A DNA stretch of 64,000 nucleotides from Myxococcota bacterium (GTDB lineage: Bacteria; Myxococcota_A; UBA9160; UBA6930). Each line of letters starts with the position of its first letter. Within the stretch, counting starts at the first letter, position 1. The notes below the pieces were generated by a model. It worked only from the letters and a program-made list of their open reading frames with translations. It was not told the DNA's origin and made no database searches. The stretch covers positions 4,448,001-4,512,000 of the forward strand of contig OZ245015.1 in the NCBI GenBank assembly GCA_965223705.1. The letters are read 5' to 3'. Positions 2,559-55,290 of this stretch are shown piece by piece. A program made the translations under genes and the position numbers.

Positions 2559-3736
2559 CCCACGATCCCCTGATCGCGCAGGCGTTCGATTTCGCGTTTT
2601 CCGTGCCCGGCGAGGGCGAGAACTTCGTCGGTGTGCTCACCGAGACCGGGCGCGGGCAAGCGCACCGCGCTCGGTGTCTCTTCGAAGCGAGCGGCCGGCC
2701 GCGGTTCGCGCATCGCCCCGGCGACGGGATGAATCGAGGTGTGCAACAGGTCGTTGGTCTCGACCTGCGGGTGGGCGATCACTTCCTCGAGAGTCAGAAT
2801 CGGTGCGCAGGGCACGTCTTCGTGACGGAGCTTCGCGAGCCACGCTTCGGTCTCTCGCGTTCGCAGGGAATCCGCAATCACTTTGATCAGGGCGTCGCTG
2901 TGGGCGACTCGATCTTGCACGGTCTTGAAGCGCGCGTCGGAAGCGAGCTCGGGCCGATCGAGAGCGCGCACCATACCCTCCCACTCTTTGTCTTGGAGTG
3001 CCGCCGCCGTCATGTATCCGTCGCGCGTTTCGAAGACCAAATTGAAGCCACCGGGCAACGCGTTGATGACGTCGTCGCCGAGCAGGGTGTGATTCCACAT
3101 GCCGTCGGGCCATAGCCACGCGATCATGGCGTCGAGCATCGCGAGTTTGACATGCTGCCCACAGCCGGTGCGCTCGCGCGCAAAGAGCGCCGCACAGATC
3201 GCCTGGGCCGCCGTCATCGCCGTGAGTTTGTCCGGGAGGAGTGTTTGCGCCATGCGCGGCTCGCCGCTCTTCGCGTCGGCCTGAACGGCGGCCATACCGG
3301 AAAGCGCCTGAATCACCGGATCGTAGACCCGCTGCTCCGCATAGGGGCCGTGCTCACCGAAACCGTTGATCGATACGTAGATCAAGTCCGGGGCAACCGC
3401 GCGCAGCGCTGATTCGCCGATGCCCATGCGTTCGGCTGCACCGGGGCGGAAGTTCTGCACGAAGACATCCGCGCCGGCGACAATCTCCTTCAGCAACTGC
3501 ACACCGCGCTTCTCGCGGAGATTGATCACGACGCCGCGCTTGTTGCGGTTCGTCGTCGCGAACAATGCCGACATCCCGCCCCGCATCGCGCCGAAATAGC
3601 GCACGACATCGCCGGCACCGGGCGGTTCGACCTTGATCACGTCGGCACCCTGATCGCCGAGCATCATCGTCGCGAACGGACCCGAGATCATTTGCGTGGC
3701 GTCGACGACACGAATTCCCGCAAGCGGTCCAGTCAT
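2555..3736 (-). CDS. CaiB/BaiF family (class III) CoA transferase
   Basis: MTGPLAGIRVVD..GADVIKVEPP..NRNKR..NFRPG..YDPVIQA; start set at ATG 3736 with GAGG upstream. Confidence 0.93.
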   Translation of the reverse strand: MTGPLAGIRVVDATQMISGPFATMMLGDQGADVIKVEPPGAGDVVRYFGAMRGGMSALFATTNRNKRGVVINLREKRGVQLLKEIVAGADVFVQNFRPGAAERMGIGESALRAVAPDLIYVSINGFGEHGPYAEQRVYDPVIQALSGMAAVQADAKSGEPRMAQTLLPDKLTAMTAAQAICAALFARERTGCGQHVKLAMLDAMIAWLWPDGMWNHTLLGDDVINALPGGFNLVFETRDGYMTAAALQDKEWEGMVRALDRPELASDARFKTVQDRVAHSDALIKVIADSLRTRETEAWLAKLRHEDVPCAPILTLEEVIAHPQVETNDLLHTSIHPVAGAMREPRPAARFEETPSAVRLPAPGLGEHTDEVLALAGHGKREIERLRDQGIVG

Positions 3737-3789
3737 GCCTCTCCCCTCGCAGGCATCATACCGCGGAGGGCGCCTTTCGCTCGAACGAA

Positions 3790-5097
3790 TCAGCGTAGCG
3801 GTGCGAGGGAGAGTGCCGGAAACATCGCGAGCGCCGCGAGGATCACGAGCATCACAAGGGCGAAGGGTGCCGCACCGACGAAAACGTCCGACAACGAGAT
3901 CCGATCGTCGTCGAGGCTTCCGTGAATGACGTACACGGAGAGGCCCAGCGGAGGGGTGAGAAGCCCGATCTCGATGGCGACGACCGTGACGATCCCGAAC
4001 CAAACCAGATCGACACCGAACCCCGCCATCACCGGCAACGCCAACGGAACGGTGACCAAGAGAATCGACGTCGAGTCGAGAACCGTCCCAAGTGTGACGA
4101 GGACCACCAAATACGCGATGAGGAGCGCTGGAAAACCCCAGTCGGTCCCTCCGACCGCCCCGAGGAGTGCCTGCGGTAGACCGGAAAGCGTGAGCATCCG
4201 CGAGTAGAGACTGGCCGCGATGAGGAGGAACGACACCGATACCGTGACGTGACCCGTCTCGACGAGCACGCGCCACAAGCCCTCCCACGACAGCCTGCGC
4301 TTCGCGAGCGCGAGAATGAGCGCCCCGAGGGCGCCCACGGCCCCGGCCTCGGTGGGTGTCACAAAGCCGCCGTAGATTCCGCCGAGCACGAGCGCCACCA
4401 GGATCCCGATCGGAATCAGTACGCGGAACGAGCCACTCTCGGCGGCGTGCGTCTCCACTTCGGCCAGGCGGCTCATGACGAAGTCGGGGCGAAAGCGGGC
4501 CAGCCCCAGGATGAGGAGTCCGAAAGCGACAGCCAGCAGGATTCCGGGGATCACACCGGCGATGAACAGTGCGCCGATCGATTGCTCGGAGAGAAGTCCG
4601 TACACGATCAGCAAGAGGCTCGGCGGAATGAGCATGCCGAGAACGGACGACCCGGCTACGACACCGACGGAAAACCGCGGTGAGTACCCGAAGCGCAGCA
4701 TTTCCGGGACGGCGACTTTCGTAAATACCGCGGCCGATGCGATGGAAATACCGGTGATCGCGGCGAACAGCGCGTTCGCCGCAACGGTGGCCACGCCGAG
4801 CCCACCGCGAAGTCTTCGAAAGAAACGGTGGGCAAGCGCGAAAGCATCGCGTCCGATATCGGCCTCGCTGACGAGGAGGCCCATCAGAACGAACAATGGG
4901 ATCACGCCGAATACGTGGCTCGCGATCGCGTCGTACGTCGCCAGAGCGAGCATCTTGTTCGCGATCGCGAACTGTCCTTTGATCGCCCAGACCCCGAGAA
5001 ACGAAAGGAGTGCGAGTACTACGCCGACATGAAAGCCGAGCCAGATGAAGAGCAGCATCAGCACGAGCGTGAGGAGGCCGACTTCGACGGGACTCAC
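3790..5097 (-). CDS. dctM: TRAP transporter large permease (DctM)
   Basis: Hydrophobic 435 aa; IPLFVLMG, LGMLIPPS, TPTEAGAVGA, IGLLTPPLG motifs. Confidence 0.93.
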   Translation of the reverse strand: MSPVEVGLLTLVLMLLFIWLGFHVGVVLALLSFLGVWAIKGQFAIANKMLALATYDAIASHVFGVIPLFVLMGLLVSEADIGRDAFALAHRFFRRLRGGLGVATVAANALFAAITGISIASAAVFTKVAVPEMLRFGYSPRFSVGVVAGSSVLGMLIPPSLLLIVYGLLSEQSIGALFIAGVIPGILLAVAFGLLILGLARFRPDFVMSRLAEVETHAAESGSFRVLIPIGILVALVLGGIYGGFVTPTEAGAVGALGALILALAKRRLSWEGLWRVLVETGHVTVSVSFLLIAASLYSRMLTLSGLPQALLGAVGGTDWGFPALLIAYLVVLVTLGTVLDSTSILLVTVPLALPVMAGFGVDLVWFGIVTVVAIEIGLLTPPLGLSVYVIHGSLDDDRISLSDVFVGAAPFALVMLVILAALAMFPALSLAPLR

Positions 5098-46222: not shown

Positions 46223-47731
46223 ATGGCCGAACAGCACGCGAATGGCGTTTGTGAGCTGACAATTGCCGAGATTCATCGCCGATTCGCCGCGGGTGAGCTC
46301 TCCGCGGAAGGCCTGACCGACGCGTACCTCCGGAGGATCGCGGCCTACGATCAACAGGGCGCCATGCTGAACGCGGTCGTGACGTTGAATCCCGCCGCGC
46401 GAGATGATGCGCGTCGCCTCGATGCGACTCGTTCGCAGTCCGGCGAACTGTCGGGCTCCCTCCACGGGATCCCGATTCTCGTCAAAGACAACATCGAGAC
46501 GGGAGGTATCGCCACGAGCTTCGGCAGTGCGGCCTTCGCTGAGTACATCCCCCAACAGGATGCGACGGCGATCCGGAAGCTTCGCGATGCCGGCGCGATC
46601 ATCTTGGGTAAGACCGCCATGCCCGACTTCGCGACGTCGTGGTGGGGCTATTCATCGCGCGCCGGTGAGACGCGCAACCCCTACGATCTCGCACACGACC
46701 CGGGTGGATCGAGCTCCGGCACCGGCGCTTCCATCGCGGCGAACTTCGCAACGGTGGGACTCGGGACAGATTGTGGCGGATCGATCCGCTTGCCGTCGTC
46801 GTTCGACAATTTGGTCGGCGTGCGCTGCACGCCGGGCTTGATCAGTCGAACGGGCCTCGCCCAGCTGGTCTATCAGCAAGACACCATCGGCCCGATGGCG
46901 CGCTGTGTCGAAGACGCCGCGCGCGTCTTCGATGTGCTGGTCGGGTTTGATCCGACCGACGATCTCACGACGACCTATCTGACCGCACGAGCACCGGACA
47001 GCTACCTCGGCGCCCTCAAGAGCGGAAGCTTACGCGGGGCGCGGTTGGGCCTGGTCGGGAACGTCATGGGATCGCCCCACGACGAGGGCGCGGCGGTCAA
47101 TGCGGTGATTCGCGAGTCCCTCGACGCAGCGGAAAAAGAGGGTGCGACTGTCGTCGAAATCGAGCTCGCGAATCTCGAGCAACACATTCTCGCGACGTCG
47201 CTCTACCAGAATTGTTCGAAGCACGACATCAACGCTTTCCTCGCGTCCCGACCCGACGCGCCCATGCGATCCCTCCAACAGATCTACGACGCCAAGGCCT
47301 ACCACCCGATGCTCGACCTTTTGGAGGGTTGTGTATTCGGTCCGGAGCTGCCGGAACACGACCCCATGTATCACCGGCGTCTCGCCGCGCGGGAAGAGTT
47401 CGCGCGCAGCGTGCTCCTGCAGATGGGAGCACTCGAACTCGATGCGCTGGTGTACCCCACCGTACGGGTCCCATCGCCCTCGCGCGAGGAGCTCAACGCC
47501 AAGCGGTGGACGACGCTCGAGTTTCCGACGAACACGCTCATCGCGGCGCAGACGTGGATGCCCGCAATGAGCGTGCCGGTGGGCTTTACCGAAAACGGAC
47601 TTCCGGTGGGCCTCGAGATCGTGGCGAAACCCTACGCCGAGGAGCAGCTGTTCGCGTTGGGCTACGGGATCGAGCAAGCCACCTGCGCCAGGCGCACTCC
47701 GCAAGCGACGCCCGAGCTCCCGGACGCCTAG
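46223..47731 (+). CDS. Amidase signature family protein
   Basis: LHGIPILVKDNI, PGGSSSGT, GTDCGGSIRLPS. Confidence 0.93.
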   Translation: MAEQHANGVCELTIAEIHRRFAAGELSAEGLTDAYLRRIAAYDQQGAMLNAVVTLNPAARDDARRLDATRSQSGELSGSLHGIPILVKDNIETGGIATSFGSAAFAEYIPQQDATAIRKLRDAGAIILGKTAMPDFATSWWGYSSRAGETRNPYDLAHDPGGSSSGTGASIAANFATVGLGTDCGGSIRLPSSFDNLVGVRCTPGLISRTGLAQLVYQQDTIGPMARCVEDAARVFDVLVGFDPTDDLTTTYLTARAPDSYLGALKSGSLRGARLGLVGNVMGSPHDEGAAVNAVIRESLDAAEKEGATVVEIELANLEQHILATSLYQNCSKHDINAFLASRPDAPMRSLQQIYDAKAYHPMLDLLEGCVFGPELPEHDPMYHRRLAAREEFARSVLLQMGALELDALVYPTVRVPSPSREELNAKRWTTLEFPTNTLIAAQTWMPAMSVPVGFTENGLPVGLEIVAKPYAEEQLFALGYGIEQATCARRTPQATPELPDA

Positions 47732-49179
47732 TCTTCCCGCGCGAGCAGCTCCCGGACGCGTTCGATGTACGGCTCTTTGTCGTAAAGCGAAAAGTACGCA
47801 GACGCCATGCGCTCCGGGGGCCCGAAGAAGAAGCGCTCATACAAGGCTTGACGGTTGCCGAAGCCCGAGACCGCCACGTCCTGGGCGAGGCGAAACAGAG
47901 CGACGCGATCTCGGGACTCGAGATGCGCGAGCTGGAAGTAGCGCTCGACGTCTTCGGCGATGGGTCCCTCGAAATCGCGCTCACAAGGCGTCGCCATCAA
48001 CGAACTCGAACCCAAGAGCTGCACGAGCTCGACGAGCCTGGGGTACATCTGCGGAAAGACGTTTCGAGCCGTATCGAGCGGCCGCCGAAGCGGCGTCATC
48101 GTTCCCCACTCATCGGGCGCCGCGTCGACTTCGGCCACTCGTAGGAACGCGCGCATGCTCTCTGCGATCCACATGGCCTCTGCGACCAACCCTTGCACGC
48201 GGGGATCCTGGTCGCGTTCACTCGCGCGCACCATGGCGCAGAGGAGCCCGACGATGAACTCCGCCTTCGCGAGGTTCTTGCACACGACCTGATGCATCAT
48301 GTGAACGACGGCGCTGGTCTTTGCGTAGGCCTCGTTGCAGAGCAACGGATCGTCGTACAGGAAAACCCGCTCCCAAGGGACGAGAACGTCGTCGAAGATG
48401 ACGACGGAATCCATTTCCTCGAACCGCGAGGACAGGGGGGCGTCGAAGACCGATCGGCCCGTGTCGTAGCTGTCGCGGCAGATGTAGCGCATGCCTTCCG
48501 TCGCGTTGGGGAGGGCGAAGGCCAAGGCGTAAGGTTTCGATTCGGGCGCCGCTTTGAGGATGGTCGAAGGAAAGACCGCTATTTCGTCCGACAGGGGGCC
48601 CAACGTCGCGAGGAGTCGCGCACCGCGCACGATCAATCCGGCGTCGGTTTCTCGGACCACCCGCAGCGCGACGTCTTCGCTCGGGTGGCCGTCGGCCGTC
48701 AATCGACGATTGACCTGAGGATTTACAAGTGTGTGCGTGAGCACGAGGTCGTTGTCACGGATGTACTCGTAGTAGCGGACGACGTTGTCGCCGAATCCCT
48801 CCCGACATCGATCGAAGAGTTTCGAGGCCGACGCAAACGCCGTGAACGAAGCGTTCAAATAATCCGGGGTACGCCCGAACATGCCGTGGCTGTAGCGAGC
48901 CCATTCTCCGTAGGCGGCTCCGCGCCGCGCGACGTCGTCGGTGGTCGCCGGCTGCAGGAAAGACATCGCGAAACGCTCGCCGGAACGGCCGGGCCCCTCG
49001 TACGTCAAGACGTCGCGCAGCGCTTCGTCGTGTTGCCGATCGAGCAAGCGCGCGAGCGATTCGGCGCCGCGGCGAAGCCTCGGATCTCGCGTGACGTCAT
49101 CGACGCGCTCTCCTTCGATCCAAACCTCGCGTCCGTCGCGAAGGCCTTTGAGATACGCCGCCCCGGTTCTCACGCCCAC
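47728..49179 (-). CDS. hpaB: 4-hydroxyphenylacetate 3-monooxygenase, oxygenase component
   Basis: RTGAAYLKGLRD, GRTPDYLN, HTLVNPQ, GARLLAT, RFEEMD, RQALYERFFFG. Confidence 0.92.
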   Translation of the reverse strand: MGVRTGAAYLKGLRDGREVWIEGERVDDVTRDPRLRRGAESLARLLDRQHDEALRDVLTYEGPGRSGERFAMSFLQPATTDDVARRGAAYGEWARYSHGMFGRTPDYLNASFTAFASASKLFDRCREGFGDNVVRYYEYIRDNDLVLTHTLVNPQVNRRLTADGHPSEDVALRVVRETDAGLIVRGARLLATLGPLSDEIAVFPSTILKAAPESKPYALAFALPNATEGMRYICRDSYDTGRSVFDAPLSSRFEEMDSVVIFDDVLVPWERVFLYDDPLLCNEAYAKTSAVVHMMHQVVCKNLAKAEFIVGLLCAMVRASERDQDPRVQGLVAEAMWIAESMRAFLRVAEVDAAPDEWGTMTPLRRPLDTARNVFPQMYPRLVELVQLLGSSSLMATPCERDFEGPIAEDVERYFQLAHLESRDRVALFRLAQDVAVSGFGNRQALYERFFFGPPERMASAYFSLYDKEPYIERVRELLARED

Positions 49180-49188
49180 TTGCGCCTC

Positions 49189-50040
49189 CTATCCAGCATC
49201 CGGAAGGGCGAAATCGACATTGCACTGCCCCGTTCCGCTGCTTCCGAAATAGTCGCCGACGAGCTCTCCGCGCCCGCGGTAAGCGTCCCAACCGAGAGCG
49301 CCGAAGAGTGTCGCGGTATCCGCCATCCCCACTTCGCCGAAGCACCGCTCGGCGTATTCCGGCAACATCGCGATGAAAGCGCCGTGATCACCGGCTTCCC
49401 ACAATTCTAAGACCCGGAGGTCCACCTGCCGGTTGAACTCCGTGTTGACCGTGTTGAGGCCTCCGGCGGACTCTCGGTTGGGCCAGAACTGGTGAGACAA
49501 CGACCCCGACGCGAGCAGAGCCACGCGACGCTCGGAACGGTCGCAAGCCGCGCGAAGCGACTCCCCAAAGGTTCGGTGCTCCTCGATGGAGGCGTAGGCG
49601 TTCGCCGCCACGCACAACACGCGGGCGCGCGCCTCGGGGTTCATATGGCGCATCGGAATCAGCGTGCCGTATTCGAAACCCAGGCCCGGGTCGCGGTGGG
49701 CGATCGCTCGCAGCCCCCGCTCTTCCGCGGCGGCCACGGCGTCGTCCGCGAGCTCGGGATCACCCGCGTAGCGGTACTCGAGACCCGAGAGCATGTGGGG
49801 CAGTTCGGGGCTCGTAAAGACACCCGCGTTTTCGGCGTTCGCGTTCGCGTGAAAACCCTGATTCACCACCCAGTGGACGTCGACGACGACGAACGTTTCT
49901 ACCCGGCGCCGTGACGCTCGTTGCCCGAGCTCCCGGAGTCCGGCAATCGCTCCGTCGCGAATTCCGCGATGCTCCGGAGCGTGCTCGGACAGCCAGATCG
50001 ACGGCACGTGGGTCACCTTCGACGCCATCACCAACGGCAT
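49189..50040 (-). CDS. hpaD: 3,4-dihydroxyphenylacetate 2,3-dioxygenase (LigB-like)
   Basis: KVTHVPS, DVHW, ELPH, EYGTLIPM, ASGSLSH, YFGSSGTGQ; ATG overlaps the hpaE stop. Confidence 0.92.
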   Translation of the reverse strand: MPLVMASKVTHVPSIWLSEHAPEHRGIRDGAIAGLRELGQRASRRRVETFVVVDVHWVVNQGFHANANAENAGVFTSPELPHMLSGLEYRYAGDPELADDAVAAAEERGLRAIAHRDPGLGFEYGTLIPMRHMNPEARARVLCVAANAYASIEEHRTFGESLRAACDRSERRVALLASGSLSHQFWPNRESAGGLNTVNTEFNRQVDLRVLELWEAGDHGAFIAMLPEYAERCFGEVGMADTATLFGALGWDAYRGRGELVGDYFGSSGTGQCNVDFALPDAG

Positions 50041-51554
50041 CAAGTCGCTCCCAGGGTCGGGACGCGATGGTCCCCCAGTGCGACACAGACGTTCTTGGTC
50101 TCCGTGTAAAAATCGAAGCTGTAGTCTCCGCCGTCTCGGCCGATACCCGAAGCTTTCATCCCGCCAAAGGGTGAGGGAAGGTGGCGATTGTTTTCAGAGT
50201 TGAGCCACACCATTCCGACGTCGAGATCTCGCGCGATGCGGTGCGCGCGCTCGAGATCGCGCGTCCAGACGTAGCCGGCGAGCCCGTAGCGAGAGGCATT
50301 CGCGATCCGCAGCGCTTCGGCTTCGTCGTCGAAGGGAATGACCGTGAGCACCGGTCCGAAGATCTCTTCTTGAGCGATTCGCATGTCCGACTGCGCGTCG
50401 AGCAGCACGGTGGGACGGACATAGAGTTCGCCCGGTGCCGTTCCGGATGCCGTGTAGACGCGCGCACCTTCCTCTTCGGCGAGTTCTAGGTAGCTCCGCA
50501 CTTTGCTGCAGTGCTCGCGATGAATCAAAGGGCCGACTTCCGTCGCTGGATCGAGTGGGTGGCCCACGCGGATGTTGTCGATGCGCGACGCGAGCGCGCG
50601 CGTAAATTTCTCGTGCACGGAACGCTCGATCAACAAGCGGCTGCTCGAGGTACAGCGCTCGCCGTTGAGGCTGAAGATCATGAAGATCACGGCGTCGAGC
50701 GCGCGCTCGAAGTCCGCGTCCTCGAACACCACGACCGGATTCTTTCCCCCGAGTTCGAAGTGGACGCGTTTTAGCGTTTTGCTCCCCTGTGCCATGATCG
50801 CGCTTCCGGTGGCGGACTCTCCGACAAACGCGATCGCTTGGATCGCGGGGTCTTCCGTCAGCGCCTTTCCCGCTTCTTCACCCAACCCGTGAACAGTATT
50901 CAGGACACCCGCCGGCAGCCCTGCCTCATGAGCGATCTCCGCCAACAAGACGGCAGAGAGCGGACTCCATTCAGCGGGCTTGTGCACGACGGTGCAGCCG
51001 GCGGCGAGGGCGGGCGCGATCTTCCATGTCGATAACATGAACGGGGTGTTCCACGGCGTGATCACGGCCACGGGACCGATTGGCTGACGGAGCGTGTAAT
51101 TCAGATGTTGGGCAGCGGGCAGTGCCTGCCCGTCGCGCACTTGCTCGGCGCGCGCGGCAAAGAAGCGGAAGTTGTCGGCGCTTCGCGCGGCCGCCTTGCT
51201 CATAAACCGGAGCGGTTGACCCGTATCGCTCGATTCCACAAGTGCGATCTCTTCCGCGCGGGTTTCGATCGCGTCGGCGATCGCCTCGAGGACTCCGCGC
51301 CTTTCTGCGGGCGGCCGTCGAGACCAATCGACAAAAGCCGCTTCTGCTGCGGCCGACGCCCGTGCGACGAGAGTCGAATCGGCCAGGGGCACCTGACCGA
51401 GATCGCTACCGTCGATCGGCGACGTATTGGCAACGGTTCCCGACGTGATTCGCTCCGCCTCACCTGCGATGATGTGGGGCAGGGTTCCGCCGCGGAAACG
51501 GGCCAGCACCTGCTCCGCCAGAGCCCGGTTTTCTTCGAATGTTTTCGCGCTCAT
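50040..51554 (-). CDS. hpaE: 5-carboxymethyl-2-hydroxymuconate semialdehyde dehydrogenase
   Basis: ITPWNTPFMLSTWK, FELGGK, SLNGERCTSSSR, EEIFGP; hpa context. Confidence 0.93.
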   Translation of the reverse strand: MSAKTFEENRALAEQVLARFRGGTLPHIIAGEAERITSGTVANTSPIDGSDLGQVPLADSTLVARASAAAEAAFVDWSRRPPAERRGVLEAIADAIETRAEEIALVESSDTGQPLRFMSKAAARSADNFRFFAARAEQVRDGQALPAAQHLNYTLRQPIGPVAVITPWNTPFMLSTWKIAPALAAGCTVVHKPAEWSPLSAVLLAEIAHEAGLPAGVLNTVHGLGEEAGKALTEDPAIQAIAFVGESATGSAIMAQGSKTLKRVHFELGGKNPVVVFEDADFERALDAVIFMIFSLNGERCTSSSRLLIERSVHEKFTRALASRIDNIRVGHPLDPATEVGPLIHREHCSKVRSYLELAEEEGARVYTASGTAPGELYVRPTVLLDAQSDMRIAQEEIFGPVLTVIPFDDEAEALRIANASRYGLAGYVWTRDLERAHRIARDLDVGMVWLNSENNRHLPSPFGGMKASGIGRDGGDYSFDFYTETKNVCVALGDHRVPTLGAT

Positions 51555-51949
51555 GACGAGCCCGCGCGCGCGGCTACGGCGTGGTGGAGCGGGTTCGCCT
51601 TCCATGAGAACTCGCCGTCGATCTCCTGAACCTCGAGGGAGATCGCTGTCTCCTGGGCGACGCCTTCTCCTTCCAGAACGGACCTCACAGCGGCGAGGAG
51701 CGTTTCTCCGACGCCTGTTTTCGTCGTGTCATCCCGCCCCCGGCCGATGCGGACGACCACGTCGACGAAACCGTTTCCGGGATGTTCGTCCGCCACGGCG
51801 TAGTCGTCGCAACGGATCGCTCGGGTCCGCGTGCCACCTTTTGGGAAGACGCCGGTCGAAAGCGCGGCCTTGTGCAGGCGCTTCACCAGATCGCCGCGTC
51901 GTAGCGCGTCGTGCAGGTTGGCGGAGTACTGAACCACGAGGTGCGGCAT
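51551..51949 (-). CDS. hpaF: 5-carboxymethyl-2-hydroxymuconate delta-isomerase
   Basis: N-terminal Pro (MPHLVVQYSANL), GVFPKGGTRTRA, RIGRGR. Confidence 0.9.
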   Translation of the reverse strand: MPHLVVQYSANLHDALRRGDLVKRLHKAALSTGVFPKGGTRTRAIRCDDYAVADEHPGNGFVDVVVRIGRGRDDTTKTGVGETLLAAVRSVLEGEGVAQETAISLEVQEIDGEFSWKANPLHHAVAARAGSS

Positions 51950-52005
51950 GAGGTGAGCGCGTTTCTCCAGTGGCTATCATGGTACCAAGAGGTGCGAACC
52001 CAGCC

Positions 52006-52866
52006 ATGCGAATCGTGAGCTTCAACGTTGCAGGTCGAGATGCGTTCGGTGTGCTTCGCGGTGAAGAGGTCATCGATGCCGGCGCGCGCTTCGCGGCCGA
52101 CGTGCCGAGTGTTGTCGACCTCGTCACGAAGTCGAGCGACCCACACTTTCGAGATCGGTTCGCCAACGCGTCATGCGACTTCCGTCTCGACGAGGTCCGC
52201 CTGCGAAAACCGATTCCCCTGCCGGGGAAGTTCCTTTGCGTCGGCGTGAACTATGCGGATCGCAATGCCGAGTACCGCGACGGTGCGGAGCGGCCGCGCT
52301 ATCCGAGCTTGTTCATGCGTACGCCCGATTCGTTGGTCGCGCACGGCGAGCCCATACTCAGGCCGCCCGAATCTGAGCAGCTCGACTACGAGGGGGAGAT
52401 CGGTCTCGTCATCGGCACCGCGGGGCGTCGCATTCCAGAAAGCGAGGCCATGCGTCACGTCGCCGGTGCGACATGCGTCAACGAAGGCAGCGTTCGCGAC
52501 TGGATACGCCACGGGAAATTCAACGTCACCCAGGGGAAGAACTTCGATCGTTCCGGAGCGGTCGGCCCATGGATCGTGACGGCTGACGAACTCGACTTGA
52601 CGGCCCCACTGACGCTGGAAACGAGGGTCAACGGCGCGCGGCGTCAATTCGACACGACGTCGCGCCTCTCCTTTCCGTTCGCGCGTCTCGTGTCGTACAT
52701 CTCCACCTTCACCACGCTCCACCCGGGAGACATGATCGCTACGGGAACCCCAACGGGCGCCGGCGTTCGCCTTTCCCCTCCGCAGTTTCTCGTGCCGGGC
52801 GATGTCGTGGAAATCGAAGTGTCGGGGATCGGCGTGTTGCGCAACGAGGTTGCCGACGAGAGCTAG
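52006..52866 (+). CDS. Fumarylacetoacetate hydrolase family (HpaG-like decarboxylase/isomerase)
   Basis: CVGVNY, LDYEGE, NEGSVRDW, GKNF, GDMIATGTP; divergent from the hpa operon. Confidence 0.88.
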   Translation: MRIVSFNVAGRDAFGVLRGEEVIDAGARFAADVPSVVDLVTKSSDPHFRDRFANASCDFRLDEVRLRKPIPLPGKFLCVGVNYADRNAEYRDGAERPRYPSLFMRTPDSLVAHGEPILRPPESEQLDYEGEIGLVIGTAGRRIPESEAMRHVAGATCVNEGSVRDWIRHGKFNVTQGKNFDRSGAVGPWIVTADELDLTAPLTLETRVNGARRQFDTTSRLSFPFARLVSYISTFTTLHPGDMIATGTPTGAGVRLSPPQFLVPGDVVEIEVSGIGVLRNEVADES

Positions 52867-52920: not shown

Positions 52921-53298
52921 ATGATCGGTTATGTAACGCTCGGGACCAACGACTTCGAGAAGGCGGCAGCCTTCTACGACGCTCTGCTCGGTGACATCGG
53001 CGCCAAGCGAGCCATGGAAAACGAACGCATCGTGCTGTGGGCGAAAGCGCCGGGAACCCCGATGCTGGCGGTCTGCAAGCCGTTCGACGGCGGTGCCGCG
53101 ACTTCCGGGAACGGCACCATGGTGGGCCTCGCTGCGGAATCGAAGGAACAAGTCGACCAGATCTACGCGAAGGCGATCGAACTCGGAGGGACCGACGAAG
53201 GTCCCCCCGGCCCCCGCGGCGATGACGGTAGCTTCTACGGTGGCTACTTCCGTGACCTCGACGGGAACAAATTCGTCGCGTTCATCTTCGGCGGCTAG
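52921..53298 (+). CDS. VOC/glyoxalase family protein
   Basis: YVTLGTND..FYD, GNGTM, GGTDEGPPG, YFRDLDGNK; AGGAGG RBS. Confidence 0.92.
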   Translation: MIGYVTLGTNDFEKAAAFYDALLGDIGAKRAMENERIVLWAKAPGTPMLAVCKPFDGGAATSGNGTMVGLAAESKEQVDQIYAKAIELGGTDEGPPGPRGDDGSFYGGYFRDLDGNKFVAFIFGG

Positions 53299-53303
53299 TG
53301 CAT

Positions 53304-53335
53304 GATGGCCAGCCGGGGACTACCGGCTGGCCATC
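53304..53335. terminator. Perfect 13-bp hairpin between convergent genes
   Basis: GATGGCCAGCCGG-ggacta-CCGGCTGGCCATC; no clear U-tract. Confidence 0.6.
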
Positions 53336-54049
53336 TCACCCCTCGAGGACCTCGAGCAAGTTGCCGAAGAATGCGTGACAGGCGCGCGCACTCTGCTCGA
53401 AATCGATGACAAAGCCCCGGTCTCCTGGGTTCTGAGTGCGCCACAACCGTCCGTGCTCTTCGCTACAGAAGAAATGCACGCGTTGTCACAAACCATCGAG
53501 CATGTGCGGTTTCGCGCGATCTTCCGCGGTGGCAATCGGATCGAACTCCCGCAAGGTCCGGGTCGCAGGGTGTTCGCTCTCAGCGCTATCCGCGGTCACT
53601 CGAAAATTGAATTCGATGGGTTCGTGGCACTGAGAGCAGCGCGACCACACGTTCGCTTCGGTTCCAACCCCGTACACGACGGGGACGGCAATCGTGCCTC
53701 CCGCTCACATTCCGTCGAGCCGCGCGCCGCGAACCTCGACTTGGTGGTTGCACGGAACGGCCGAGAAGGGATAGAGCGCGAGGATCCGCTCGCCGCTCGG
53801 ATCGAGTTTGAGGGCATCGCGGCGATTGAGTCTGTCGAGCACGTCCCGGACCTCGGTCGGCGCGAGATCCGTTGCGTCCTGTATCGATTCGGCGCTGGGA
53901 ACCGCACCGCGACCGAGCTCTTCGATCGCCGCGCGACAGCAAGCTCGCTCTCCCGGGGTCATGTTCTCGAGGAAGCGGATGCGAGCGTCCAACAGCGGCT
54001 GGAAGTGCGCGGCAAAACCACGCGGATAGTCGTCCGGATCCATGCGCAT
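53336..54049 (-). CDS. MerB-like organometal lyase, predicted selenoprotein with two Sec (U115, U188), 237 aa
   Basis: One frame through TGA 53707-53705 and TGA 53488-53486: wHTH..YPFSAVPCNHQV..LDGM-U-AGG..SRCSQCHEPI..GL-U-QRVHFFCSEEH..W; GGAGA RBS before ATG 54049; SECIS-like hairpins follow both TGAs. Confidence 0.85.
53444..53485 (-). promoter_or_regulatory. Candidate SECIS element for the second UGA
   Basis: CAAC-g-CGUGC-auu-UCUUC-[UGUAGC]-GAAGA-GCACG-gacg-GUUG; loop starts 19 nt after the UGA, G at loop position 2. Confidence 0.7.
53664..53688 (-). promoter_or_regulatory. Candidate SECIS element for the first UGA
   Basis: CCG-U-CCCCGU-[CGUGU]-ACGGGG-U-UGG; loop starts 27 nt after the UGA, G at loop position 2. 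Confidence 0.6.
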
Positions 54050-54146
54050 CGTGGTCTCCCTGCGCTGGGCGCGCGCAATGCGTTGCTCGCTCAGCTCGTC
54101 TCAAGATACGATACCGTTCCAATCCCCCGAACTGGAGACTCCGCAG

Positions 54147-54437
54147 ATGCCCGCTTATTTCGTCGCGATTTCGAAAGTGAAAGACCAGGAAAAGCTGCAG
54201 GAATACGCCGCCCAGGCCGGTCCGACGTTGGGCGCACACGGCGCCAAGGTCTTGGCGCGCGGTGGCATCGCCGAGGCGTTGGTGGGCACCAAGTCTGGGG
54301 ACGCCGTGCTCGTCGCGGAGTTCCCGAGCGCCGACGCGATTCGCACTTGGTACAACTCGCCGGAGTACCAGGCGGCGATCCCCACCCGCGAGAAAGCGAT
54401 GGACGCGAACTTCCTGATCGTGGAGCCGCCGGCCTAG
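54147..54437 (+). CDS. DUF1330 family protein
   Basis: MPAYFV..Y..HGAKVLARGG..EFPS..WYNSPEYQ; GGAG RBS. Confidence 0.92.
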   Translation: MPAYFVAISKVKDQEKLQEYAAQAGPTLGAHGAKVLARGGIAEALVGTKSGDAVLVAEFPSADAIRTWYNSPEYQAAIPTREKAMDANFLIVEPPA

Positions 54438-54469
54438 CGGTCACGGCGTCGGCTCAGCCGACGCCACCC

Positions 54470-54582
54470 CCTTCGCTCGCCTTCGGCTCACTGCGCGCTC
54501 CTTTCGCGCTTCGCGCGAAACTCGCTTGCGATTCCCGGAGATTCGCGCGAATTCGCTCGCGCTCTGCCCGGGTTCGCGCGCG
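54470..54582. repeat. Palindrome-rich intergenic segment (REP-like)
   Basis: TTTCGCGC-ttc-GCGCGAAA (54502-54520) and ATTCGCGCGAAT (54541-54552), between convergent genes. Confidence 0.4.
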
Positions 54583-55290
54583 CTAGCCGTACTGGAATTC
54601 GGGGTAGAGCAGGTTGACGGCCTGCACGAAGCCGACGTCCCAGATTGCGCCGATAAGTTGCCAGGCGATCAAGATCCCGACGATCGCGATCGTCGGGTTC
54701 CGCATCCATTCCCGGTAGTGCGTCATCCACGCCTCGGGCAAGACCAACGGCAGTGCGCCGCTTCCGTCGAGCGGCGGCAGGGGAATCAGGTTGAGCAGTA
54801 GCAGCAAGAGGTTCATCGAAAAGAAGACGCTGAGAACAAACGCCGCACTGGCCGCGAACCCCGCGTCGCGAGCGGCTACGACTCGGTCGAAGACGACCGA
54901 GTCGGGTGCGTAAAACGCATCACCGGCGACGCCGACGCGAATCGCAACACCCATCGCGATGAGCAGCAACAAGTTCGCTCCGGGCCCGGCCAGCGACATC
55001 CACGCGGCGCGTTTTGGATAACGTTCTGCCCACACGGGATCATAGGGGGCGCTTGCGAAACCGAGCGGCCAGCCGGAAACGATCACGGAAAGAATCGGCA
55101 GAATCACCATGCCGAAGGGCTCGCGGCGGATGTGCGGCATCGGATCGATCGACACCTGGCCGCCGCGGTACGCGGTGAGATCTCCGCCGCGTTTCGCGGC
55201 CCAGGCGTGCGCGGCCTCATGCAACGTCGCGGAAAAGAGGAACGCGACGTAGTAGACGATTGCCGAGAGGATGTCGGTTGAGGCGATCAG
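54583..55290 (-). CDS. Site-2 protease (M50) family metalloprotease
   Basis: HEAAH, AGPGAN, NLIPLPPLDG; the frame extends to CTG 55290 and includes the TM segment preceding HExxH. Confidence 0.88.
   Translation of the reverse strand: MIASTDILSAIVYYVAFLFSATLHEAAHAWAAKRGGDLTAYRGGQVSIDPMPHIRREPFGMVILPILSVIVSGWPLGFASAPYDPVWAERYPKRAAWMSLAGPGANLLLLIAMGVAIRVGVAGDAFYAPDSVVFDRVVAARDAGFAASAAFVLSVFFSMNLLLLLLNLIPLPPLDGSGALPLVLPEAWMTHYREWMRNPTIAIVGILIAWQLIGAIWDVGFVQAVNLLYPEFQYG

Follow-up and report, generated by a model that had tools for sequence, protein, structure and literature searches.

The organomercurial lyase MerB acts through a catalytic triad of Cys96, Asp99 and Cys159, in which Asp99 donates the proton. 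Structures have been deposited for the enzyme of plasmid R831b (PDB 3F0O, 3F0P and 3F2F) and for MerB2 (5C17). A selenium-containing member of this fold, SaoL ('selenocysteine-assisted organometallic lyase', NF040728, Haft & Gwadz), marks a nine-gene SAO neighbourhood in anaerobes; its description, which states the same triad for MerB, gives it a single selenocysteine (Sec), part of a CU dipeptide placed over MerB Cys159 on superposition, with Cys99 (at the Cys96 position) and Asp102 kept (bioRxiv 10.1101/2022.07.06.499078). SaoL, with one Sec, is also the sole MerB-fold entry among the 119 prokaryotic selenoprotein families and subfamilies tabulated in a May 2026 review (Table 1). Here we describe a MerB-like gene on a 64,000-nucleotide stretch of a Myxococcota bacterium genome (GenBank assembly GCA_965223705.1, contig OZ245015.1, positions 4,448,001 to 4,512,000; hereafter the window, meaning that whole stretch) in which TGA codons stand at the positions of both Cys96 and Cys159. 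We put the probability at about 90% that the gene is intact and encodes a MerB-fold protein of 237 residues in which both metal-ligand positions are Sec, each served by its own SelB-type hairpin.

Like SaoL, the window protein matches Pfam MerB, is a predicted selenoprotein truncated by gene callers and has Sec at the Cys159 position. The single Sec of SaoL lies in a CU dipeptide, its Cys96 position is still Cys, the Asp is retained and the gene resides in the SAO neighbourhood, whereas the window protein has two predicted Sec residues, an L-U-Q context at the second and Gly at the Asp position, and its gene lacks an SAO-type neighbourhood. Membership of the window family in SaoL was considered and ruled out: the protein scores 37.2 bits against the NF040728 cut-off of 140 (relatives, 38.7-43.6), has no CU and places Sec at the Cys96 position. 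With MerB and MerB2 the window protein shares the fold, the two metal-binding positions and the FF that follows the second of them; it differs from MerB in its predicted selenols for thiols, Gly for Asp99, a CxxC motif for the single Cys117, and the absence of a merR/T/P/A context.

A preliminary description of this DNA, made from the letters alone, named SaoL correctly as a Sec-containing MerB-like protein, and the preprint text indicates that SaoL is a separate one-Sec branch. It also suggested that a stand-alone two-Sec form might be undescribed in this lineage. The first part of that suggestion holds for the searchable literature and for NCBIfam; the restriction to one lineage does not, as the form is widespread across phyla. 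A two-Sec MerB-like form was not found in searchable full text, where SaoL stands alone and to which subscription journals and supplements do not belong, and no model of NCBIfam release 20 is reached at its cut-off by the window protein or three relatives. The two-Sec MerB-like proteins thus appear to form a family distinct from SaoL and uncatalogued in the review table and NCBIfam. Gene callers split such genes or misread their code, so that surveys of merB-type genes and of selenoproteomes miss the family.

Reading frame and fold

The gene and its immediate signals are as follows.

54049..53336, minus strand: predicted two-Sec MerB-like coding sequence, 237 sense codons plus the terminal stop TGA at 53338-53336
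54056..54061, minus strand: Shine-Dalgarno-like AGGGAG, read from the sequence, 6 bases 5' of the ATG at 54049-54047
53705..53707, minus strand: first in-frame TGA (site 1), predicted Sec115, aligned with MerB Cys96
53486..53488, minus strand: second in-frame TGA (site 2), predicted Sec188, aligned with MerB Cys159

The only internal in-frame stops are the TGAs at 53707-53705 (codon 115) and 53488-53486 (codon 188). The list of open reading frames (ORFs) splits the frame into 53705..54049 (114 aa) and 53486..53677 (63 aa) and omits its last 49 codons (53485..53339). Translation confirms that both fragments and this tail belong to a single 237-residue frame interrupted by nothing other than the two TGAs, as the preliminary description had proposed, and the peptide stretches it quoted are correct. 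The start at ATG 54049 is reasonably secure because AGGGAG, a candidate ribosome-binding site, lies upstream and the N-termini of relatives' database fragments agree: P0007, P0008, P0011 and P0042 begin MR[LI]P/S, resembling the MRMDP of the window protein. A third Sec at the terminal TGA was considered and rejected, as the frame beyond it is the antisense of a VOC gene and relatives stop nearby with TAA or TAG.

The two TGAs do not look like assembly errors. A 901-base stretch is identical in Logan contigs from two samples of one study, which may be the window's own source, and a 151-base Logan contig from a second study spans 53697-53847, including the first TGA, with zero differences. Independent reads with TGC or TGT at these sites would have spoken for sequencing error; the Logan contigs, which may include the window's source, agree with the assembly.

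For protein analyses TGA was translated as U, entered as C in the programs. The product matches Pfam MerB (PF03243) with 60.3 bits (gathering threshold 27) over residues 95-228, a span that covers both TGAs, as the preliminary description anticipated. In HMMER alignments to solved MerB chains, residue 115 falls on Cys96 of WCA(L/I)(D/S) and residue 188 on Cys159, the first Cys of FCCHVHFF, which bears out the earlier assignment of the TGAs to the two catalytic cysteines. The best sequence match among solved structures is MerB2 (5C17, E 1.4e-10). An AlphaFold2 model built from an 81-row alignment has a mean predicted local distance difference test (pLDDT) of 95.9 and a predicted template modelling score (pTM) of 0.91, and Foldseek against the PDB at E <= 0.001 returns 11 chains, all MerB or MerB2, with TM-scores by target length of 0.75-0.80 (0.80 for 5C17). 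The window gene is an intact gene for a MerB-fold protein. A further candidate name, the MbdU 'metal-binding double selenoprotein' (NF045648), gave no match at E <= 1.

Both TGA codons as predicted selenocysteine

Reading both TGAs as Sec is by far the best explanation of the sequence pattern, in which the insertion machinery, the conservation of the codons, the Cys-bearing homologs and two RNA hairpins point the same way. The genome (4.56 Mb, 95% complete) contains all of selA, selB, selC and selD. The tRNA-Sec scores 78.2 bits with Rfam and is called tRNA-SeC with anticodon TCA by ARAGORN; selA (486 bits), selB (320.7) and selD (269.6) are each above cut-off and free of internal stops. These components would supply insertion at both UGAs, with the third TGA (53338-53336) acting as the true stop. 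The selD match (L009, G000:C1:22501-23403) lies inside a 736-codon open frame, far longer than the usual SelD, which suggests a fusion or a long open stretch upstream, and selB is found ~2 kb downstream of it.

The two codons recur at the same columns in relatives. A six-frame, motif-free protein search of 61 related genomes finds the gene in seven, including the window genome, and all six others carry two in-frame TGAs; two of these belong to the same genus (~50-51% identity) and four to another genus (28%). L028, an extra copy, is frameshifted and contains one TGA. In the five-sequence alignment A1 neither TGA column varies. A one-genome-per-species scan yielded 161 relatives, of which 80 loci (81 gene copies) were kept, six being the same genes as in the 61-genome search. 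TGA occupies site 2 in 80 of the 81 copies and site 1 in 79, although 80/81 is not an unbiased frequency because the search pattern favours Sec-bearing members; the site 1 column reads TGA in 78 of 78 distinct aligned sequences. The loci, from metagenome-assembled genomes (MAGs), are labelled Anaerolineae/Chloroflexota, Acidobacteriota, Desulfobacterales, Myxococcota/'delta proteobacteria', Spirochaetota, Binatia, Gemmatimonadota, Actinomycetota, Nitrospinota and others. Two loci depart from this pattern: L077 lacks both TGAs, and L031 is truncated by a contig end, its missing site 1 having been located, with TGA, on another contig of the same genome. In a motif-free sample of 401 genomes of the phylum the gene is sparse (five genomes, including that of the window); two of the four other matches have two TGAs, one has one and one has none.

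More distant homologs carry Cys at the same columns, the alternation that the preliminary description named as a check. Searched exhaustively with HMMER, 1.84 billion representatives gave 386 matches at E <= 0.001. In the full-length matches fetched (P0009, P0010, P0012, P0014 and others; 30-34% identity) both columns are Cys, within MCAIDALG and C..FFCS, and the Cys-type relatives are labelled P0009-P0024. The closest database matches are fragments cut exactly at the TGAs: P0007 and six others end in ...M before site 1, P0023 and P0055 end in ...HMLDG[LF] before site 2, and P0104 is a tail. The one-TGA match of the 401-genome sample (L110, genome G282) reads Cys at site 1 and carries its TGA at site 2, in T-U-N with no CU dipeptide; by its codons it is an intermediate between the Cys type and the two-Sec type.

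Two further variants were seen among the relatives. L077 (5001-5495; G-G at site 1, F-C-F at site 2) and P0166 (G and L) have lost both Sec positions and kept the rest, and may be non-catalytic paralogs. The Chloroflexia-labelled locus L069 holds two near-identical tandem two-Sec copies, at 3316-4065 and around 5517, ~1.6 kb apart.

A bacterial selenocysteine insertion sequence (SECIS) is a hairpin that follows the UGA directly; its apical loop contains a G and lies ~16-37 bases from the codon. Each TGA of the window gene is followed by such a candidate.

53668..53684, minus strand: SECIS-like hairpin 1, CCCCGU-CGUGU-ACGGGG, bases 24-40 counted from the U of the UGA
53452..53480, minus strand: SECIS-like hairpin 2, a 5-bp lower stem, a 3-base bulge and a 5-bp upper stem (UCUUC/GAAGA) with loop UGUAGC containing G23 and U24

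The apical loops, at bases 30-34 in hairpin 1 and 22-27 in hairpin 2, lie in the SECIS range. Across the family, hairpin 1 is encoded by the P-F-V-Q-G codons CCC UUC GUG CAA GGG, with bases 23-29 pairing with 35-41 around a CGUGC loop. In 78 distinct sequences 84.9% of its cells are paired, and its covariation is 0.160 compared with 0.089 in shuffles (reached by 0 of 500) and at most 0.076 when the partner strand is slid. Pair 23-41 is C-G in 32 sequences, U-A in 20 and U-G in 6, whereas pair 28-36 is U-A in 67, U-G in 7 and G-C in 3, these last being the window and its genus; main-clade U-A is thus replaced by G-C in the window, and by A-U in G433, a Nitrospinota-labelled member of the window's branch. 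By itself, the window's hairpin 1 folds at -9.5 kcal/mol. Family hairpin 2 spans the F-F-W-S-E-E codons UUC UUC UGG UCA GAA GAA and forms a 7-bp stem with a GGUC loop, where the window has the six-base UGUAGC. In 79 sequences it is (nearly) invariant, with 98.2% of cells paired, and covariation says little for it because the stem hardly varies; the window's own hairpin 2 has pair probabilities of 0.89-0.91.

Codon choice within the stems is constrained beyond the protein. The hairpin 1 codons CCC, UUC, GUG, CAA and GGG are 91-100% fixed, and those of hairpin 2 are 92-100% fixed at synonymous sites. Over amino-acid columns conserved in at least 85% of 79 genes, synonymous-codon entropy is 0-0.46 bits within the two hairpins versus 0.57-2.4 at other degenerate columns. 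Gly is encoded by GGG in 96% within the hairpin versus 6-23% elsewhere, Glu by GAA in 94-100% versus 30%, and Ser in hairpin 2 by UCA, one of six possible codons, in 92%. The peptide motifs FFWSEE and PFVQG thus double as RNA stems, a clean case of joint protein and RNA constraint, and the gene offers a natural case of two putative SECIS elements embedded in one short coding sequence.

Several points weigh against the two-Sec reading, in which selenium insertion is a prediction from sequence. The isolated 63-nt RNA of the window prefers another fold, in which the family form of hairpin 1 has a pair probability of 0.01. The 80-locus set was gathered with the pattern [VHK]FF[WC]SEEH, which begins four codons past site 2 and overlaps hairpin 2. 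The formate-dehydrogenase-like genes of the genome lack an in-frame TGA, and no other selenoprotein was identified in that genome.

If the gene were a pseudogene, its two nonsense mutations would have happened to strike precisely the codons of the catalytic cysteines. Gene callers do yield three fragments, few genomes of the phylum carry the gene (5 of 401 in the sample) and the relative L028 is truly frameshifted. Against this, the columns of both TGAs are the same across phyla and in relatives with as little as ~22% identity, and the hairpins are conserved. Moreover, the loss of conservation past the TGAs that decay would leave was looked for and is absent: identity to the ~50-51%-identical genus relative is 50/114 (44%) before site 1 but 41/72 (57%) between the sites and 27/49 (55%) after site 2. 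Two chance nonsense mutations, already called implausible in the preliminary description, are refuted for practical purposes. It is slightly less remote, but still very improbable, that the UGAs are read as another residue, either Cys, through a Cys-charged Sec-like tRNA carried by SelB, or Trp or Cys through near-cognate read-through, both of which are known mechanisms. Selenium in the protein is a prediction, and of eight public 'full-length' main-clade entries fetched, named 'hypothetical protein' or 'alkylmercury lyase', seven print W at both sites. These W entries, on 1-kb contigs, look like table-4 miscalls, however, and the holders of the gene span high-GC phyla that use TGA as a stop, as the window gene itself does at its end. 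The sole UCA-anticodon tRNA found scores as tRNA-Sec, the other matches to that model that were checked (the next three by score and the seventh) being tRNA-Ser and tRNA-Leu, and selA and selD are intact. Selenocysteine at both sites, as the preliminary description proposed, is therefore the reading favoured by machinery, conserved codons, hairpins and Cys homologs.

The Asp-less branch and its possible function

The main two-Sec clade is characterized by AAU-A-x-D at site 1 and D-x-F-U-R-K-S-V-F-F-W-S-E-E-H around site 2, with Asp at +3 after the Sec in at least 90% of the 81 aligned sequences, comparable to the C-A-L-D of MerB. Judged by its sequence, the window protein is a member of a divergent branch, M-U-A-G/A-G, that has no Asp99 equivalent, and this branch is what the window adds. 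Gly118 aligns with MerB Asp99, so that the triad positions read Sec, Gly, Sec and the MerB triad is not preserved. Gly stands at +3 in the window (U-A-G-G), its genus relatives (U-A-A-G) and the G433 member (U-A-G-G), and Glu is found there in other relatives (U-G-L-E in L111, U-A-L-E in L124). Branch and main clade share 21-27% identity, and the branch itself is diverse: seven N-terminal cluster representatives, every one of them truncated at the same codon, show 37-58% identity. The window resembles the main clade in both Sec columns, both hairpin positions, the CxxC, His102 and His199, and differs in reading FFCSEEH for FFWSEEH.

Several residues besides the Sec columns are strongly conserved. 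Cys138 is invariant family-wide and Cys141 is present in at least 90%, forming a CxxC where MerB has the single Cys117. His102 and His199 are invariant in the 81-sequence alignment A4, and Asp185, three residues before the second Sec, is invariant in the five-sequence alignment A1.

The Nitrospinota-labelled MAG G433 (L122, L123, L124) contains two different two-Sec MerB-like genes, one of the Asp-less branch and split over two contigs, the other with U-A-L-E at site 1; one other genome among its relatives was searched and gave no match. A metagenome scan for branch members, run with patterns that put Cys at the Sec column, yielded a single locus (L121); the protein there is almost identical to those of the genus relatives G001 and G002.

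By analogy with MerB, the two selenolates would face each other like Cys96 and Cys159 around Hg and clamp one soft metal or metalloid. At neutral pH selenolates are ionised, and their hold on Hg is tighter than that of thiolates; capture of organomercurials or similar species at very low concentration would be expected. Two selenium ligands in a MerB fold would make an uncommon active site, one whose affinity for Hg should greatly exceed that of any thiol enzyme. The difficulty would then lie in letting go of the product, for which the conserved CxxC (Cys138, Cys141) is a candidate acceptor. MerB-type protonolysis would need another donor because the Asp99 equivalent is Gly in the window branch; Asp185, His102 and His199 are candidates. 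Otherwise the protein may only bind metal or pass it on, perhaps to Cys138/Cys141. Through its Asp-less branch, the family contains its own comparison for the role of the acid residue.

On this analogy, we see barely less than an even chance that the protein captures organomercury or a comparable organometal(loid), whether or not it also cleaves the carbon-metal bond. Lyase function in particular faces several objections. Beyond Gly at the Asp99 position, the protein scores well under the equivalog cut-offs of SaoL and of MerB (NF033555 and PRK13239, 50.1 and 49.7 bits against 200 and 193). No mer operon context (merR, merT/P, merA) surrounds the window gene, and Pfam finds no mer gene among 71 upstream ORFs of related loci, a sample of the upstream side only. 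All-against-all BLAST of 585 flanking ORFs from the 81 loci gives no cluster present in more than six loci; flanking ORFs came from a crude greedy caller, and many of the upstream ORFs have no Pfam match.

The missing Asp and the missing mer context also fit a true double selenoprotein that is not a lyase, working in metal binding or trafficking or as a diselenide redox enzyme re-reduced through Cys138/Cys141. MerB2 and MerB D99S, both without the Asp, bind copper and are poor lyases. Judging by their titles, the PDB entries of both are metal-bound forms. Retention of the Asp and of the whole MerB fold in the main clade instead favours a MerB-like ancestral activity, and no partner reductase is conserved nearby; a non-lyase role is a substantial possibility that we would hold at clearly under even odds. 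A broader proposal, which we consider unlikely, makes the two-Sec family enzymes of mer-independent methylmercury demethylation or organometal(loid) cleavage in anoxic sediments and groundwater, from which the Asp-less branch would have evolved other chemistry, perhaps cleaving or capturing aryl-metal compounds with its selenolates. In both genus members examined, genes for opening aromatic rings adjoin the gene (an hpa cluster in the window, a catechol dioxygenase in the relative), which is a hint in that direction. How uncultured anaerobes deal with methylmercury when they have no mer operon is, to our knowledge, an open question on which the family would bear.

Neighbouring genes and other elements

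The MerB-like gene stands alone between a convergent VOC/glyoxalase gene (52921-53298, plus strand) and a divergent DUF1330 gene (54147-54437, plus strand), with an M50 peptidase, a P450 and an MFS transporter farther away. A 4-hydroxyphenylacetate/homoprotocatechuate meta-cleavage cluster (47728-52866) lies a few hundred bases from it and contains an HpaB-like hydroxylase, a LigB-type extradiol dioxygenase, an aldehyde dehydrogenase, a CHMI isomerase and an FAH-family hydrolase. The genus relative has a catechol-type dioxygenase (L029:5732-6475) and an enoyl-CoA hydratase beside its copy. An SAO-type neighbourhood was not seen, the ORFs within ~8 kb being unrelated catabolic or housekeeping genes in a survey that did not search the Sao models singly.

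Recurrent Pfam families among the 71 upstream ORFs are scattered (DUF3795 five times, MFS four, MarR three, ECH three). A DUF3795 gene lies directly upstream on the same strand in five Desulfobacterales-labelled loci (L041, L049, L063, L083 and L091) and is the only recurrent same-strand neighbour seen.

On the plus strand, a 403-codon ORF (53375..54586) runs antisense to the MerB-like gene and crosses the DUF1330 gene; Pfam finds nothing in it, and we take it to be a probable shadow ORF of high-GC DNA. A further structure occupies the 37-base gap between the convergent genes.

53304..53335: perfect 13-bp GC-rich hairpin between the VOC and MerB-like genes, 3 bases past the stop TGA

This hairpin was not called by a scan for promoter and terminator consensus sequences, which gave nothing above shuffles. 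It folds at -31.2 kcal/mol (z = -4.99; none of 200 shuffles folds as well) and has no T-run; it is probably a bidirectional terminator.

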